Assembly (NCBI GenBank): GCA_016212525.1
Contig: JACRGD010000007.1
Span: 15,112-79,111, forward strand
Direction of reading: 5' to 3'
DNA from: Candidatus Micrarchaeota archaeon
Lineage (GTDB): Archaea; Micrarchaeota; Micrarchaeia; Anstonellales; Bilamarchaeaceae
DNA: 64,000 bases
Shown: positions 1,739 to 29,623 of the stretch, one piece after another
Numbering within the stretch: the first letter of the stretch is position 1
Layout of the letters: every line of letters begins with the position of its first letter
The notes under the pieces: model-generated
Told to the model about the DNA's origin: nothing
The model's database searches: none
What the model saw: the letters and a program-made list of their open reading frames with translations, nothing else
Made by a program: the position numbers and the translations under genes

Positions 1739-1949
1739 TCAAGAACTAGCGGGAAACTTTTTCTTTAATACCATTAACGATAAATGCGGCACTAGTAAGA
1801 ACACAGAGGGGACATGGATGTGCAACTGAGCTAACGGCCCAGATCGCACCGATGGCAAGGCTCTCGTTCCCTTTTTTGATGAGGTTTTCCTTATTCACAT
1901 AGAAAATGAGTCTGAAAGAGAATAAAAATAAGATGGAAAATAAGTTTGA

Positions 1950-2125
1950 CCTTGCCGTTTTTTGCCGCTTTTCCGGCTTCATCTCGCGAAACCTGCTTTA
2001 GCACATGTAGCTTCGCAGACCTTCGCTCTGTTCAGGTCTGCTCGCGTCGCAAAACTAGTGCTTCGCTCAGCGTCGTCGTCCCTTCGGGACGACTCGCGCT
2101 TCCGCGGAAATGAGGTGTGCTGGTT
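1950..2125. repeat. GC-rich structured non-coding block of the GAGCGAAGC family (candidate ncRNA)
   Basis: about 60% GC island in AT-rich surroundings with no convincing ORF; minus strand reads CTGAGCGAAGCACT and CAGAGCGAAGGTCTGCGAAGCTACATG; a GUCGUCCC-UUCG-GGGACGAC tetraloop hairpin sits at ~2066-2085. Confidence 0.4.
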
Positions 2126-2170
2126 CTTCTTTATAAACAAGGCAAAAATAGTACTCTTTGGTGAAGAGAA

Positions 2171-2892: not shown

Positions 2893-3705
2893 TCAGGATT
2901 TGCTCCGATAAATCGCGTAGATAGTCAGAAGGTATCCGAAATAACTCAAAAGCTGTAGATCACTTGGATTTCCATCATAACCAATAAGACCCTTAAAGAT
3001 AGAACCAATAGGACCTTTTTCATGTAGCAAAGGATATGATCCATCTGAATTTTGTGGAGGATTGATGTCATATACATGTTCCACGTAGGTAGGAAGAATA
3101 TGAGCCTCCTGAAGTTCATGGATGCCTTGAGAGAAAAGGCCTGCAGCTAGCAAAATCAGAATAACAGTTGTGATCTTGAAAAATCTGCCAACATTGAAAT
3201 TTATTGCATATTCAAATATCAATACTCCTAAAACAATGGCAGCCACAGCGCCCATAAAACCTCCAACAAGAGAGATTGCACCAGTATTAACATAAATTCC
3301 GGCTAAAAAGAGAACGGATTCAACTCCCTCTCGAAGAGTAGACGTAAATGCGAGCAAAAAAAGCCCCAATGTTTCTTTTTTTTCGAGGGCCACCTTGACA
3401 TCCTTAGTAAGAGAGTCGACAACTTTTTTCTGACCCAGCATCCAAAGCACAAGCCAGCTAACAAGACCACTTGTGAGAATTAGAAAAAAACCTTCAAAAA
3501 GTTCTTCACTTGCACTAAAACCCCCCTGAACAAATTGAAAAATAAATGCAAGACCAATACTCGCAACCAGACCGGCCGCTACGCCTAACCAAACATGCTT
3601 TTCGTGATCCTCATTTTTTGTTTTGTGCAAATATGCAAGAATAATACTAACAACAAATGCAATCTCAAGACTTTCTCTAAATAGTACGATGAACTCAGCA
3701 AGCAT
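2893..3705 (-). CDS. FTR1-family high-affinity iron permease
   Basis: 270-aa polytopic membrane ORF with two REGxE-type motifs (FRESLE, LREGVE) diagnostic of FTR1/EfeU. Confidence 0.8.
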   Translation of the reverse strand: MLAEFIVLFRESLEIAFVVSIILAYLHKTKNEDHEKHVWLGVAAGLVASIGLAFIFQFVQGGFSASEELFEGFFLILTSGLVSWLVLWMLGQKKVVDSLTKDVKVALEKKETLGLFLLAFTSTLREGVESVLFLAGIYVNTGAISLVGGFMGAVAAIVLGVLIFEYAINFNVGRFFKITTVILILLAAGLFSQGIHELQEAHILPTYVEHVYDINPPQNSDGSYPLLHEKGPIGSIFKGLIGYDGNPSDLQLLSYFGYLLTIYAIYRSKS

Positions 3706-14110: not shown

Positions 14111-14863
14111 GTGGGCAAAACAAAAACAAGACCAGAATTAAGAGAGATTACACTCAGAGTCATAGAGGGGTTTAGAACCCAGATACCGGTACTAGATCTG
14201 ACAGTGAGTAGTAAAAAAGGCACTCGAAAAATCGAAAGAGAGGAAAAAGATAAGCTCGAAAAAGCGATAGAAACGGGCTGTCAAAAAGAGTTTCGGGGAA
14301 TAACTACAGAGATAAGTACACTAATAGCCAATGAATATGATGTAGGGGAAATTATCGTTCCACTCGTTAAGAGACTCAGAACAGAAACGGATCAAAGCAT
14401 AAGAAATCAAATTTTAATAAACCTCATCAAAATAGAGAGAACTGGCCACAACACCGGAATGGCAAGCGGAGACATTACAGAACTCATAAATGCATATGGA
14501 GAGGACACACGATATTTGGCAGTTAATTATTTTCTTGAAAGAGTTCGAAACGGACATAGAATAAACCTGCAGATCGAAGAACTTTGCATTGCGGCATTTG
14601 ACTTGTCTCACCAAATACGAGAAATAGCATTAGAAACTCTCAAAAGATATGGGTCGAGAGGCGCGTTTGAGAAACAGGAAATAGAAGACGCATTAGAAGA
14701 TCCAAGAGTACTTACTAAAAAGGACGAACTAGTCAAAAATATCAGAAATAGCATGGAACGCGATCCAAAAGACATCAAACCAGCAGAACTCCAACGAGTC
14801 ATAAAAGAAACAATAAAGGCGGAGACAGTAGGACGAATTGAAGAACTACTCGAGCGAGAATAA
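14111..14863 (+). CDS. hypothetical protein (possibly HEAT-like)
   Basis: 250-aa ORF; its stop codon lies inside the first unit of the 24-bp tandem array. Confidence 0.45.
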   Translation: MGKTKTRPELREITLRVIEGFRTQIPVLDLTVSSKKGTRKIEREEKDKLEKAIETGCQKEFRGITTEISTLIANEYDVGEIIVPLVKRLRTETDQSIRNQILINLIKIERTGHNTGMASGDITELINAYGEDTRYLAVNYFLERVRNGHRINLQIEELCIAAFDLSHQIREIALETLKRYGSRGAFEKQEIEDALEDPRVLTKKDELVKNIRNSMERDPKDIKPAELQRVIKETIKAETVGRIEELLERE

Positions 14864-14990
14864 ATCTCGCATACTTCGCGAGAATAAATCTCGCATACTT
14901 CGCGAGAATAAATCTCGCATACTTCGCGAGAATAAATCTCGCATACTTCGCGAGAATAAATCTCGCATACTTCGCGAGAATAAATCTCGC
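14855..14990. repeat. perfect 24-bp tandem repeat, 5 full units plus a 16-nt partial unit, made of alternating palindromes
   Basis: unit CGAGAATAAATCTCGCATACTTCG repeated without a single mismatch; arms TCTCGC and GCGAGA alternate with loops ATACTTC and ATAAA; independently visible as (ARFILAKY)x5 in the antisense ORF track. Confidence 0.9.
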
Positions 14991-15030
14991 TCGTAGAGCC
15001 ACTGGAGCTGCGAACGAAGTTAAGTTATGA

Positions 15031-15154
15031 AGCCCCCGGAGGGATTTGAACCCCCGGCCTCCTCCTAGCTCGATACTTTTTATAATAAGTTTTTGATTAA
15101 ACTTTTTCCTAAAAAGTTTACGAGAGAGGCGCTCTACCACTGAGCTACAGAGGC
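15031..15154 (-). tRNA. tRNA-Thr (anticodon CGU) with ~52-nt intron at position 37/38
   Basis: hand-folded: acceptor GCCTCTG/CGGGGGC, D-arm GCTC-AGTGGTA-GAGC, anticodon stem CCTCT/GGAGG with loop CTCGTA|A, T-arm GGGGG-TTCAAAT-CCCTC; intron begins with a 9-bp AAACTTTTT/AAAAAGTTT hairpin. Confidence 0.8.
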
Positions 15155-15289
15155 ATTGCTAATAGAAACAGCTTAAGTGAATTTAAAGATTGGTTTTGGT
15201 CAGATGGAACACGTTCCTAGGAAAAACAGAATCTGCAGTCGGAAGTTGTTTTTCTCGATATTGAATTCAATCACTTTAGACAGAATCAG

Positions 15290-15393
15290 CATTCGGTCTC
15301 CGGATCGCAAACTCAGGACTTTTGACCAAACCATTTACTCGCGACCGGAGCGAAGCGACGGGAAGCACAGGAGGCGAAGCAAAGTAATTGGAA
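15290..15393. repeat. GC-rich structured block in the tRNA-Gly/tRNA-Thr spacer (GAGCGAAGC family)
   Basis: GGAGCGAAGCGACGG and GGAGGCGAAGCAAAGTAA; long-range stem CTCCGGATCGC...GCGACCGGAG enclosing TTTTGACCAAACC, a motif that recurs twice near tRNA-Ser. Confidence 0.4.
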
Positions 15394-15467
15394 TGCGGTC
15401 GTCGGGATTTGAACCCGAGTTATGGGGTTGGAAACCCCAAGTCCTAACCAGGCTAGACTACAACCGC
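15394..15467 (-). tRNA. tRNA-Gly (anticodon UCC)
   Basis: hand-folded: acceptor GCGGTTG/CGACCGC, anticodon stem TGGGG/CCCCA with loop TTTCCAA, T-arm TCGGG-TTCAAAT-CCCGA, discriminator A; no intron. Confidence 0.85.
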
Positions 15468-15561
15468 TAATGATAAGAGATAATTAGCATTTGAGGAGTA
15501 AAGAATATAAACCATTTTAAGGCTCAATAGAAAAAATAAAAAGAAGATATAAAAGAAAAAA

Positions 15562-16257
15562 TTAGAACTTAAAGTTCTTTCTAGTCGTTTTGATCAGGTC
15601 TTTAGCGTCTTCCTGTCCGCCAAATCCAAAGGCAATTGCGAATGCGAGTGCAACACCAAAAGCCATGGCCTGAATCAAGGTCAGGAAAATGCCAGTTATC
15701 AAAGTCGTGTTGAAACCAGTGGTTGCAAGACCCATAGTCACACCAACACAGACGATCATTAACTTGACACCACGAGCGACAAGCTTAACGGAATCGGACT
15801 TGTTGTTGAGCTCGGTTATGGATTCTTTTACATATTCACCCAGTAACACAGAAGCAAGAGCCACTAACAAGCCACCGATAAGAACAGGAACATAGAGCAA
15901 AAGAGTTGACAGGTATAGGGACAGAGTTCCAAGTTCAACAAATGAAACTGCAGCCTGAACAAAGATCAACAATACATAATATTTGATGATTTTTGTAAGC
16001 ACTTCACTTAGTTTCACAGTTCCAAGAGCATCATCAATTTTATTTTGTTTGAGAAATTCCTCGAATTTAATGAGTTTGAAAAGACGGGCAAACAATCTAC
16101 TCACGAGAATAGAAACTACCCAGCCCAATACGAGCACTAAAATTGCAGCAATAAAACCAGGAAGTAATGCCACAACCTGAGTAACAACAGTTTGTGCTGC
16201 CGCAGCCACAGGATCAATTATCAGATTTTGATTTATTTCTACTATATGAATCACCAA
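15562..16257 (-). CDS. membrane protein with conserved TM-helix repeats (MscS N-terminal-like)
   Basis: 231 aa, 5-6 TM helices, Gly/Ala-rich helix faces. Confidence 0.4.
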   Translation of the reverse strand: MVIHIVEINQNLIIDPVAAAAQTVVTQVVALLPGFIAAILVLVLGWVVSILVSRLFARLFKLIKFEEFLKQNKIDDALGTVKLSEVLTKIIKYYVLLIFVQAAVSFVELGTLSLYLSTLLLYVPVLIGGLLVALASVLLGEYVKESITELNNKSDSVKLVARGVKLMIVCVGVTMGLATTGFNTTLITGIFLTLIQAMAFGVALAFAIAFGFGGQEDAKDLIKTTRKNFKF

Positions 16258-16351: not shown

Positions 16352-17002
16352 TCAGAAAGCTCCGGCCAAATCAGATAAGAAAGATTTTGGATCAGCAGAC
16401 TTAACAAAAGCGCTTGAGAGGAGAACGCCCTTTGCTCCTAGCTCCAAAGCTTTTACAACATCAGTTTTGTCGCTAACACCAGCACCACAAAGAACAGTAA
16501 TTCGGGAATTTATTTCCTCCACAGCCCGAACGGAATTGGAGATCACATCTGGTTTAACCTTTGAAACGCTGATCCCGCTGCTTATGAGCTCGGGTGGCTC
16601 CACAGCCAGATAGGTAGGTGAAAAAGAAGCAAGATCCCGCATTTCCATTGGGGTCGGTGCACAAACCAAACTTTCAAGACCGCACCGGTGCAGGTTGTTC
16701 ATTGCCAAAAGGAGGACCGGCCGGGGCAAACGCTTTTCCGAATGGTTAAGAATCGAACCCTTAACGCGAACAAATCGCAACAGATCAGCAGGAACAGAGC
16801 CAGTAAATGCCCCTGGGGGATCCCCATCACAGTGCTGGGCAAAAACATCAGAAAAACGATCAGCCGCATCGCGCAGAAATGGAGAAGGAGGGCAGATAAC
16901 AATTCGAACTCCTGTTTCGGCAACCACTTCCCGAGCCACATCAGTAAAAAAAAGTGAACGTTCGATCGATGGAGGATATGTTTTGAGATTTAGAACAATC
17001 AT
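16352..17002 (-). CDS. tpiA: triosephosphate isomerase (archaeal short form)
   Basis: 216 aa; NLKTY near N-terminus, ILNHSEKR catalytic His motif, AVEPPELISSG catalytic Glu loop; this gene is about 50% GC, above the local background. Confidence 0.85.
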   Translation of the reverse strand: MIVLNLKTYPPSIERSLFFTDVAREVVAETGVRIVICPPSPFLRDAADRFSDVFAQHCDGDPPGAFTGSVPADLLRFVRVKGSILNHSEKRLPRPVLLLAMNNLHRCGLESLVCAPTPMEMRDLASFSPTYLAVEPPELISSGISVSKVKPDVISNSVRAVEEINSRITVLCGAGVSDKTDVVKALELGAKGVLLSSAFVKSADPKSFLSDLAGAF

Positions 17003-17059
17003 AAAGAGGAATAGGAAAATAAGAGTAATAAAGAAATCGTTTTATTGACTAGAATAAAA

Positions 17060-17452
17060 AACCAATAAAGGTAGGCGAAGCAAAGTAAAGTGACTCCGAG
17101 GCTACGCGAGTCGACTAACCAGAGGAGATATTGACTAAGCAGATGTCTCAATTGTCATTTAGTAGGTCCTTGGATTTTTGACCAACCACTCGCCTAGCGA
17201 TCTGCAAAATCGCGACGGTTTAGCTACGCAGACATGAATGTCTGCTTGCGACTTTTGTAATAAGAGAAAAGAAGTCAAAAGTAATGTGACGCCACGCGAA
17301 ACGGCCTGAGCGAAGCAATGGACGCGAAGCTAAGCGAACGAGCGTATGACTAGGCGTTCTGAATGAGTTGGAGTGATGATTTGGTAATTCCTCAGGGCTT
17401 TGACCAACCCTTTTACTTTGCCATAATTTATGCTGAAGTCAAAGTAATGGGT
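17060..17452. repeat. about 400-nt GC-rich structured non-coding region between tRNA-Ser and tpiA (GAGCGAAGC family, multiple hairpins)
   Basis: contains GGCGAAGCAAAGTAA (identical 15-mer at 15370), CTGAGCGAAGCAATGGACGCGAAGCTAAGCG, two TTTGACCAACC copies, a perfect 8-bp hairpin GCAGACAT-GA-ATGTCTGC, hairpin GCGAT-CTGCAAA-ATCGC, and box C (GTGATGA) plus box D (CTGA) like elements; no ORF. Confidence 0.4.
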
Positions 17453-17587
17453 CGCCGACACCAGGATTTGAACCTGGAATCCACAAGGGATCAGTTCACC
17501 TGAACGTTTTTTAGTTCGTTTTTAGTCAAGCTTTTTCCTAAAAAACTTGTTCGAGACTGACGCACTACCGGGTTATGCGATGTCGGC
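17453..17587 (-). tRNA. tRNA-Ser (anticodon CGA) with ~54-nt intron at 37/38 and long variable arm
   Basis: hand-folded: acceptor GCCGACA/TGTCGGC, anticodon stem TCAGT/ACTGA with loop CTCGAA|A, 13-nt variable arm, T-arm CCAGG-TTCAAAT-CCTGG, discriminator G. Confidence 0.8.
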
Positions 17588-17648
17588 AAAAGTATAGGAA
17601 TTATGTGAAGAGAAGGGATTTAAATCGCTTAGGATCCCACAAACAAGA

Positions 17649-18236
17649 TTATTTGCTCTTTAGTATGGATTCGGAAAAATCTTCCGATTCAAAAGAATAG
17701 AATTTGAGATCTGAAAGATTGGTTTTCCAATAATTTAAAGGAAGGAGAGCATTTGCACAAAGTCTCGAGAGAAAATCTTCTTTGGAATTAAACTCTTTCC
17801 AAAGTATAGGCATCAGAATTGCAGATTTTTTACCGGATTTAACTAGAAGACCAGTTTTACCGACGCTAATTTTCTTAAGCAGATCTGCAGAAGATGAGAC
17901 CTCAAGCGGAACAAACTTAGTCAAGATAGAGATAGTGATTTTTATTCGATTAAGATCCAATGGAGTTAGTGGTGGAAGAACCGGATCATTAAAGGCAGCC
18001 AAAATCGAACTATGAATTACAGAATCGAGAATGGACCGGTTATCATCCAAATCACCCATAGAACCTGCAACCCGATCATGATTGAAAAGAGTTACGTAAG
18101 TATATCCATTTTGAAGGAGTTTTTTTGGAACAACTTCTGAAGCGTATTTGAGAACATCTCCAGTTCTTAAAATATTTTCCATTGATCTCCTAGAAGCCCT
18201 AAGAAGAAAAACCCGTTCAGATTGAGAAAGAGACAT
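17649..18236 (-). CDS. AMMECR1-like protein
   Basis: 195 aa of AMMECR1-family length and layout; signature RGCIG is degenerate (VAGSMG). Confidence 0.4.
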   Translation of the reverse strand: MSLSQSERVFLLRASRRSMENILRTGDVLKYASEVVPKKLLQNGYTYVTLFNHDRVAGSMGDLDDNRSILDSVIHSSILAAFNDPVLPPLTPLDLNRIKITISILTKFVPLEVSSSADLLKKISVGKTGLLVKSGKKSAILMPILWKEFNSKEDFLSRLCANALLPLNYWKTNLSDLKFYSFESEDFSESILKSK

Positions 18237-29569: not shown

Positions 29570-29623
29570 TAATAAAAATCGCTTCGCTCTCAATTAAATC
29601 CATAGCTTCGCTCTGGCCTTAAT
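29570..29623. repeat. two direct copies of AGAGCGAAGC in the tRNA-Ala 3' trailer (GAGCGAAGC family)
   Basis: minus strand reads CCAGAGCGAAGCTATGG ... GAGAGCGAAGCGATTTT. Confidence 0.45.

Follow-up and report, generated by a model that had tools for sequence, protein, structure and literature searches.

What makes up the ~400-nt spacer that separates a tRNA-Ser gene from tpiA on a contig of a Candidatus Micrarchaeota archaeon, and does it encode an RNA of its own? We analyzed the stretch of 64,000 nucleotides that contains this locus (hereafter, the window). The first-pass annotation, made from the letters alone, had described the spacer as hairpin-rich and proposed that tRNA-Ser is co-transcribed with a structured RNA. 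The host was identified as a Candidatus Micrarchaeota (DPANN) archaeon based on tpiA homologues and on the archaeal gene content of the window, for instance AMMECR1 and the large and small primase subunits. The tpiA product is 100% identical to a Micrarchaeota protein at NCBI. The next best match in a search of 5.8 billion proteins is only 68% identical, and thus there is no close relative for comparing the locus at the nucleotide level.

A non-coding spacer without a folding signal

The spacer is bordered on one side by tpiA (16352-17002) and on the other by tRNA-Ser(CGA) (17453-17587, minus strand), whose 3′ end abuts it. This tRNA gene has a 56-nt intron at the canonical position and scores 42.7 bits with the Rfam tRNA model; ARAGORN misses it by default and detects it with the intron option. 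The Rfam alignment and an orthologue in L001 that has no intron gave the anticodon as CGA. A second tRNA gene of interest, tRNA-Gly(UCC) (15394-15467, minus strand), lies ~2 kb from the spacer.

The spacer is non-coding DNA, in agreement with the first-pass annotation, with no open reading frame of note and stops in all six frames. We rejected a decayed protein gene based on these stops and on tblastn searches with the proteins of syntenic-locus neighbours, which gave only E>3. The contrast in G+C content that had been drawn with tpiA is small, as the spacer has a G+C fraction of 0.436, the window 0.417 and tpiA 0.478. There is no change in GC skew or origin signature that would mark the spacer as a replication origin, and a scan for bacterial-type promoters and terminators was uninformative.

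The description as hairpin-rich did not hold. Shuffled sequence does as well, both in folding energy and in number of hairpins. The whole spacer has a folding z of -1.1 on the tRNA strand and -1.7 on the plus strand, and ten sub-segments, taken on both strands, range from -1.9 to +0.5, within shuffle expectation. Perfect hairpins of at least 7 bp number 42 in the window versus 30-54 in shuffles, so there is no enrichment. Short motifs are similarly weak: TTTGACCAACC has 4 matches at no more than one mismatch versus 1.3 expected, and 5 of 100 shuffles reach 4. What clearly goes beyond chance are longer shared blocks, namely GGCG[AT]C[CA]CATTAC(T)TTTGACTTC, which occurs twice, a 28-nt block in common with the tRNA-Gly trailer and the 16-mer TTACTTTGCTTCGCCT, present twice.

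Repeats behind tRNA-Ser and tRNA-Gly

The real signal in the spacer is its repeat structure. A tandem unit that joins the final 8 nt of tRNA-Ser to a ~70-nt module is present in two and a half copies on the minus strand (17452-17294, 17293-17090 and, as a half unit, 17089-17073). The module has two hairpins, P1 with the consensus ATTACTTTTG..CAAAAGTAA and P2 with the consensus GGKTT[GGTCAA]AAGCC, the latter including TTTGACCAACC. It begins 4-5 nt past the discriminator base of both tRNA-Ser and tRNA-Gly, where the flanks ACCCATTACTTTG (after tRNA-Ser) and TTCCAATTACTTTG (after tRNA-Gly) are present as annotated. Copies were scored with a covariance model (CM R1) trained on the copy next to tRNA-Ser (copy B) and on two copies from other genomes, L055 and L027, which are described below.

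Copy B (17385-17452, minus strand) scores 78.8 bits, as a training sequence. The arms of its P1 are TTACTTTG (17447-17440) and CAAAGTAA (17420-17413), and its P2 consists of GGGTT (17410-17406), the loop GGTCAA and AGCCC (17399-17395). The remainder of unit B (17294-17384, minus strand) is copy-specific filler with GCTTCGC motifs and, on the plus strand, GTGATGA. Only short motifs of this filler are in common with units A and C and with the external copies, with no significant similarity otherwise, and a 20-nt block of it is also found in the trailer of tRNA-Ala.

The end of tRNA-Ser and its trailer, GGCGACCC-ATTACTTTGACTTC, are repeated as GGCGTCAC-ATTACTTTTGACTTC at 17293-17270. At the boundary between units B and C, GGCGTCAC (17286-17293, minus strand; repeat family D5) copies the last bases of tRNA-Ser together with two trailer bases (GGCGACCC), and the match of GGCGACCCATTAC-TTTGACTTC with GGCGTCACATTACTTTTGACTTC reaches z 6.6. 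A second, truncated recurrence, GGAGTCAC-TTTACTTTGCTTCGCCT, spans 17097-17073.

Module copy C (17162-17285, minus strand; repeat families D6 and D7) scores 20.2 bits (E 0.05). Its P1 pairs ACTTTTG (17282-17276) with CAAAAGT (17257-17251), and it then carries two inserted hairpins, which are the pair singled out in the first-pass annotation. The first, GCAGACAT-GA-ATGTCTGC (17228-17245), had been given as a perfect 8-bp hairpin and is in practice a 7-bp stem with a 4-nt loop; the second is GCGAT-CTGCAAA-ATCGC (17197-17213). They are followed by the P2-like GGTTGGTCAAAAATCC (17187-17172), and in the covariance-model alignment the hairpin at 17228-17245 fills the P2 slot. The 3′ segment of unit C (17125-17161, minus strand) resembles the 3′ end of the T-loop intron of L055 as far as its splice junction (z 3.2 in a local alignment, a score attained by 2 of 300 shuffles), with the CTGAAAA motif degenerated to GTCAATA. 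The unit closes with a hairpin (17090-17112, minus strand; GACTC-GCGTAGCCTCG-GAGTC, then AC; families D5 and D14) that is part of the minimum free energy fold, and ends in a second tRNA-end-like GGAGTCAC.

The truncated third unit, TTTACTTTGCTTCGCCT (17073-17089, minus strand; family D17), matches with z 6.5. It holds the 16-mer TTACTTTGCTTCGCCT, which occurs twice in this repeat family and is identical at 16 of 16 positions to the start of the tRNA-Gly trailer (15387-15372). Beyond it lies a T6 run (17056-17061, minus strand), the first oligo-T downstream of tRNA-Ser and a candidate terminator, located just before the AT-rich promoter region of tpiA.

Module copy A (15309-15393, minus strand; 26.6 bits, E 0.001) directly follows tRNA-Gly(UCC). 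A GC-rich stretch replaces its P1 loop, and P2 and the subsequent CCTGAG are conserved. A 28-nt block that covers P2 is common to copies A and B (z 8-10). Of the three instances of TTTGACCAACC that had been annotated, two are exact (17177 and 17399, the latter in copy B), and the one in the tRNA-Gly trailer is the variant TTTGACCAAAC (15321-15331), with one mismatch. Beyond such short blocks the interiors of A, B and C show no significant similarity. We therefore rejected homology over whole units and regard the copies as mosaics and not simple duplicates.

The array is absent from syntenic sites

In six related Micrarchaeota loci tRNA-Ser also lies beside tpiA. The spacer between them measures 105 nt in L001, 40 nt in L003, 55 nt in L023 and 58 nt in L025, and in L006 an unrelated open reading frame lies between the two genes. 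CM R1 found no module copy at any of the related tRNA-Ser/tpiA loci. Because the spacers are short and lack the module, the ~400-nt array is a lineage-specific expansion and not a conserved gene. By the measure that the first-pass annotation had itself set for a housekeeping RNA, conservation in relatives, the spacer fails at the syntenic site. Relative to tpiA, tRNA-Ser points one way in some of these relatives and the other way in others.

Searches for known RNA families and hidden tRNAs

Linkage of tRNA-Ser to SRP (7S) RNA genes has been described in some archaea, as the first-pass annotation pointed out, although it did not recognise SRP helix-8 motifs here. No family other than tRNA reached its Rfam gathering score anywhere in the window. 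At E<=10 with lax filters, the interval 16800-17800 returned only three snoRNA models, on the plus strand, with E 1.6-7.5; the same search over 14800-15600, L055 and L027 returned tRNAs and noise only. Archaea_SRP was unmatched in local and global mode, RNaseP_arch and related models had no match either, and both identities were rejected, the locus also not being conserved in relatives.

The annotation had further pointed to a C/D-box RNA. Its elements are present on the plus strand, that is, GTGATGA at 17373-17379, TCAG 12 nt further (17392-17395) and CTGA at 17433-17436. We judged the candidate span (17373-17436) a chance match and rejected it as a C/D-box sRNA: it is antisense to the tRNA trailer, has no terminal stem and lacks D′ and C′ boxes, as the sequence 12 nt after box C is TCAG and not CUGA, and a UGAUGA-like C′ box is absent. 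The box C sequence is missing on either strand from copies A, C, L055 and L027, and the window has 22 occurrences of RUGAUGA. A pattern scan of the window for C/D boxes, with mismatches allowed, found no canonical sRNA.

For hidden, multi-intron or split tRNAs, ARAGORN was run on 17040-17452 at lowered thresholds, allowing introns of up to 300 nt, and found none. Among 157,545 single-deletion variants, with a canonical intron also allowed, only tRNA-Ser itself was recovered. A tRNA-like start at ~1840 was likewise negative for a hidden tRNA. As for a foreign origin, plasmid, phage and viral collections, including IMG/VR, gave no match.

Homologues in other genomes

We scanned GTDB species genomes, a collection without the source genome, with a degenerate block pattern and obtained 13 matches only, all of them bacterial and due to chance. 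A scan of metagenome contigs with a degenerate 19-mer from P2 yielded 58 matches. Among these, 54 arose by chance, many of them in genes that encode a YLTKPFT motif, and a bacterial gene start accounts for a further two (L044 and L037). The genuine homologues are L055 and L027 alone: they align with copy B over ~65 nt, well beyond the scan pattern, and the alignment of copy B with the L055 intron has a z of 16.7. Module identity between genomes is ~80-85% at the nucleotide level and the flanks are unrelated.

In L055 the module interrupts a tRNA gene that escaped both ARAGORN and Rfam. Removal of a 93-nt insertion in the D-loop and a 107-nt insertion after the T-loop (position 59/60) leaves a canonical 75-nt tRNA-Arg(UCU), and the module copy is within the 59/60 intron, whose flanking exons join into this tRNA; the window copies have no 3′ exon. 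The folding z of the precursor is -6.7. L055 belongs to the Micrarchaeota, as judged by its phosphoribosyltransferase, and four assemblies, GCA_964414245.1 among them, carry the identical locus. In L055 and in the tRNA-Gly of L025, the T-loop UUCA pairs, by eye, with the UGAA of the intron-terminal CUGAAAA, giving two 3-nt bulges 4 bp apart; the corresponding motif of copy C is GUCAAUA. From this pairing by eye we infer that both intron ends would form a bulge-helix-bulge (BHB).

Orthologous loci of the neighbours of L055 are without the module. The orthologous tRNA-Arg genes of L094-L096 have an unrelated 48-nt intron at position 59/60 and those of L097 and L098 have none there; the differing contents indicate that occupancy of this position turns over quickly.

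In L027 the module sits in an intergenic stretch, with a TATA-like TATTTAAAGG upstream and a T7 run downstream. Brute-force deletion recovered no tRNA from it, and the neighbouring protein has no homologues.

Structure and strand of the module

Besides its three training copies, CM R1 recovered two independent ones, A and C, and nothing else in the 64-kb window. On ~107 kb from 13 other Micrarchaeota loci it gave a single weak match (E 2.1), a P1-like hairpin in the tRNA-Arg trailer of L097/L098. In the alignment of the five copies, 94.9% of the cells pair, versus 84.4 ± 3.5 in shuffled alignments and 28-55% with slid partners; the alignment is fitted to the model, its five sequences come from three genomes, and much of the P2 covariation is the substituted hairpin of copy C. 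An indel in P1 is compensated, with CTTTG/CAAAG in copy B and CTTTTG/CAAAAG in copy C and L055.

The hairpins keep their pairing through G-U pairs on the tRNA-sense strand, which become A-C mismatches on the opposite strand. This argues for a role at the RNA level on the tRNA-sense strand. The idea of a structured RNA therefore survives in part, in that the conserved portion reads best as RNA on the tRNA-Ser strand, whereas SRP RNA, RNase P RNA and a C/D-box RNA do not.

Oligo-T terminates archaeal RNA polymerase. The first run of at least five T lies 392 nt past the 3′ end of tRNA-Ser and 168 nt past that of tRNA-Gly. Because the tRNA-Ser strand has no such run before the T6, read-through from tRNA-Ser is plausible, and the array is probably transcribed together with the tRNA.

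Origin of the array

The reading that we favor, tentatively and from sequence evidence, is that the array is a duplicated, portable tRNA intron/trailer module that would be transcribed as a long tail of pre-tRNA-Ser. The spacer would have arisen as the final ~8 nt of tRNA-Ser, together with its 3′ trailer, were duplicated in tandem, and the ~70-nt module with P1 and P2 would belong to a family attached to Micrarchaeota tRNA genes. RNA polymerase starting from the tRNA-Ser promoter would read the array through to the T6 (17061-17056). The tail would fold into local hairpins and would probably be removed by RNase Z, which would cut at the discriminator base. We infer that the tail would have no essential function, being a passenger that may spread among tRNA genes via recombination or duplication.

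Some observations run against a passenger. The ~80-85% identity between genomes could mean purifying selection, and hence function, which would favor a small RNA; close relatedness or recent transfer is an alternative cause, and the L055, L027 and window genomes have no genes in common in the sequence compared. A module without a detectable tRNA, as in L027, is not predicted by a pure tRNA-passenger model. The module is known from five copies in three genomes, with folding energies no better than shuffles.

The main competitor, which we consider unlikely yet the strongest of the alternatives, takes the module for the gene of a stable small RNA in a new family, which would be freed by RNase Z where it is a trailer and by the splicing endonuclease where it is an intron. 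In Nanoarchaeum equitans, C/D-box sRNA genes occur directly behind a tRNA, within a tRNA intron or on their own (PMC3491384), and the module has the same three contexts (trailer in the window, intron in L055, intergenic in L027). The likeness extends to the DPANN host and to the lack of a terminator between tRNA and module, where RNase Z would make the 5′ end. Other points in favor of a small RNA are the conserved GGTCAA loop, G-U pairs confined to the tRNA-sense strand, high identity despite unrelated flanks and the TATA-like box and T7 run around the L027 copy. However, C/D and H/ACA boxes are absent from the conserved part, unlike in the N. equitans genes, and the copies are poorly conserved outside ~65 nt. 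The module also has neither an Rfam match nor a thermodynamic signal, and the module is missing from the 13 other Micrarchaeota loci. Copies A (P1 loop replaced) and C (a 55-nt insertion) are heavily rearranged, which is not what one would expect of a constrained RNA gene.

Integration of a mobile element at tRNA-Ser, or recombination there, could instead have left the array as a scar, or the array could be a decayed, intron-containing tRNA pseudogene; we regard this as improbable. Integrase att cores usually span tens of bases of the tRNA, whereas the duplicated tRNA part here is only 8 nt. The GGCGNCNC-ATTACTTTG junctions can be read as old att-type duplications of the tRNA 3′ end, and three junctions look like tRNA ends; on its 3′ side unit C is similar to the end of an intron followed by the beginning of a 3′ exon, and the flipping orientation of tRNA-Ser in relatives points to a recombinationally active locus. 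Against such a scar, no integrase or other element gene is nearby, mobile-element collections were unmatched, and brute-force deletion with ARAGORN left no tRNA-like remnant. A model of this kind was proposed for Caldiarchaeum by Sugahara et al., in which introns and tRNA fragments arise when an element integrates at a tRNA gene (PMC3293823); it ties intron gain to rearrangement of tRNA loci. Our locus resembles it in having duplicated fragments of a tRNA end adjoining the tRNA gene, and differs in that there is no recombinase or element body and the repeated stretch is non-coding and 160-200 nt long. The unit was also rejected as a MITE or IS-derived repeat. Like MITE and REP-like repeats, it is short, non-coding, present in several copies and able to form hairpins, but it lacks terminal inverted repeats, the unit ends sharing none, and target-site duplications, the direct repeat at the boundary being part of the unit. 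There are three copies in 64 kb, and copies are restricted to tRNA flanks and introns.

Still more doubtful is that the repeats act as DNA, either as protein-binding sites or as a terminator or insulator between the tRNA-Ser unit and the tpiA promoter. Some short motifs are conserved as sequence and not as pairing partners (GAGCGAAGC, with 6 occurrences versus 0.6 expected, and TTTGACCAA, which also recurs), and motifs face either way with respect to the tRNAs. On the other hand, no known binding consensus matches, GC skew and origin signatures are absent, relatives manage on spacers of 40-105 nt, and one module copy is found within a tRNA gene, a place in which only a fate at the RNA level (splicing) makes sense. 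Both this role and the integration scar are less likely than the trailer-module and small-RNA readings.

Very improbable, and refuted as far as the sequence can tell, is a plus-strand C/D-box sRNA at 17373-17436, as is a divergent form of SRP or RNase P RNA: two boxes spanning 64 nt end to end and snoRNA hits of E~1.6 at best stand against the missing partner boxes and stem, the absence of box C from the homologous copies and the lack of SRP or RNase P model matches set out above. A permuted SRP RNA has been described in Thermoproteus (PMC4731332), and our locus has only its position in common with archaeal SRP genes beside tRNA-Ser, differing in the lack of a model match and of conservation in relatives.

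Modules found in both introns and trailers

Returning to the favored reading of a portable intron/trailer module, a second case comes from other Micrarchaeota genomes. The D-loop intron of the L097 tRNA-Arg and the 3′ trailer of the same gene share a 40-nt module (z 11.8), with the sequence TTTTGCTAAT..GGC[GA]AAAAT(C)GCAAA(A)CC. The trailer of the L006 tRNA-Gly is the same 40-nt module (z 8-12), with one stem pair changed from G-C to C-G. This module is unrelated to that of the window and constitutes an independent second case; with two such cases, tRNA genes of the Micrarchaeota seem to share modules between introns and trailers repeatedly.

The sequences thus suggest that tRNA introns and tRNA tails share portable modules. 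A broader proposal, which we consider speculative and rather unlikely, is that Micrarchaeota tRNA genes swap modules among D-loop introns, T-loop 59/60 introns and trailers, with trailers as a reservoir of introns or the reverse, or else that the module is a small-RNA family hitch-hiking on pre-tRNA processing. Either version, if true, would offer a concrete and testable route for intron gain in archaeal tRNAs. Proposals for intron gain at non-canonical positions of archaeal tRNAs include intron transposition and mobile-element integration, and our two cases bear on this question: two independent modules, each found both as an intron and as a 3′ trailer, suggest a simple source-sink relation. 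In a limited literature search we found no description of one module that is an intron in one gene and, in repeated form, the 3′ trailer of another.

ARAGORN at default settings and the Rfam tRNA model miss multi-intron tRNAs in Micrarchaeota. Long and seemingly empty spacers flanking tRNA genes therefore need intron-aware annotation before novel RNAs are called in them.

The tRNA genes of Ca. Micrarchaeum (ARMAN-2) are heavily disrupted by introns, including at position 59/60, and relaxed BHB motifs are among the substrates of its epsilon2 endonuclease, which has a broad specificity (PMC3239211). A transposition-like spread of intron sequences between tRNA genes was proposed in Thermoproteales, in work cited there. 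The L055 copy is likewise in a 59/60 intron, and its host is of the same phylum. We rejected the window copies as BHB introns: they are arranged in tandem and begin past the discriminator base, and they could not be spliced because they have no downstream exon and their 3′ splice motif is degenerate. A further likeness is the presence of related intron sequences in different tRNA genes. For instance, the canonical introns of tRNA-Thr and tRNA-Ser in the window have a module in common, with 78% identity over 41 nt, and the introns of the L001 tRNA-Gly and L025 tRNA-Thr carry a module that, by eye, resembles it.

Multi-intron tRNA genes

Four tRNA genes with two or three introns, D-loop and T-loop positions among them, were found in the related Micrarchaeota loci: L055 (262-545, - strand), L025 (5801-5950, + strand), L094 (about 3050-3210, - strand) and L097 (about 2990-3150, - strand). 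The Rfam tRNA model detected none of these four, and ARAGORN, run with its default settings and with its intron option, left the L055 gene undetected. In-silico splicing of the multi-intron genes recovered canonical tRNA-Arg(UCU) and tRNA-Gly(UCC).

Sequence modules common to tRNA introns and trailers

A 40-nt module, TTTTGCTAAT..GGC[GA]AAAAT(C)GCAAA(A)CC, is common to the D-loop intron of the L097 tRNA-Arg gene, the 3' trailer of the same gene (together about 2950-3135, - strand) and a tRNA-Gly trailer in another genome (L006, 5730-5770). One stem pair of this module shows a compensatory change, from G-C to C-G.

Among canonical-position introns, those of tRNA-Thr(CGU) (window 15075-15115) and tRNA-Ser(CGA) (17504-17544) are 78% identical over 41 nt, and the similarity consists of a AAACTTTTTAGGAAAAAGTTTAATCAAAAA-like hairpin. 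Because these two introns are alike and a similar module can be seen by eye in the introns of a tRNA-Gly of L001 (4720-4760) and a tRNA-Thr of L025 (6060-6095), one intron sequence family appears to be common to several isoacceptors and genomes.

A short motif in tRNA flanks

The window holds 6 copies of GAGCGAAGC versus 0.6 expected (positions 2060, 10099, 15348, 17308, 29581 and 29605). Five of the six are non-coding, the exception being 10099, and four of these five lie in tRNA flanks; both orientations relative to the tRNA are found. The reverse complement, GCTTCGCTC, is also present in the tRNA-Gly trailer of L025.

The tRNA-Ala trailer (29570-29622, - strand) begins ATTAAGG. In it, CAATTAA..TTAATTG pairing encloses CCAGAGC-GAA-GCTATGG, and 3' of the hairpin come another copy of GAGCGAAGC and a run of five T. 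This architecture (AUUA start, then hairpin, then oligo-T) matches that of the tRNA-Ser and tRNA-Gly trailers.

Just 3' of tRNA-Thr(CGU) (15031-15154) stands a perfect 24-nt tandem repeat (14864-15000, - strand sense), with five full identical units visible and one more at the 15000 edge. The unit, GCGAGATTTATTCTCGCGAAGTAT, forms the hairpin GCGAGA-TTTAT-TCTCGC followed by GAAGTAT, and the repeat is one more unusual tRNA trailer carrying the GCGAAG motif.

Orientation of tRNA-Ser

In L001, L003 and L025, tRNA-Ser is turned the other way with respect to the neighbouring tpiA than in the window (17453-17587); in L006 and L023 it is oriented as in the window. Because its orientation flips while the AMMECR1 - tRNA-Ser - tpiA neighbourhood is retained among these related Micrarchaeota, the gene order points to local inversion of the lone tRNA-Ser gene more than once.

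Other structured stretches and a bacterial match

A GC-rich stretch of the window (1960-2140) bears hairpins and three GCGAAG motifs. It contains GCAGACC..GGTCTGC and the 8-bp hairpin GTCGTCCC-TTCG-GGACGAC, which reads as a cUUCGg tetraloop on the + strand, and is overlapped by a doubtful ORF with a TTG start (1979-2377, - strand). At about 1800-1842 (- strand), GGGCCGTTAGCTCAGTTG resembles a tRNA 5' end (acceptor plus D-arm) that does not continue, and a brute-force search through deletion variants with ARAGORN recovered no tRNA from it.

In two bacterial contigs, L044 (9388-9420) and L037, GGCAAAAGTAAATGGGTTGGTCAAAA is identical to the core of the two-hairpin module at 25 of 26 positions. 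We judged this match a coincidence, although the six extra matching bases are unexpected. In both contigs a gene for a zinc-ribbon protein, downstream of a sigma-70 promoter, has GGCAAAAGTAAATGGGTTGGTCAAAA as its ribosome-binding site and start (MGWSKK...).
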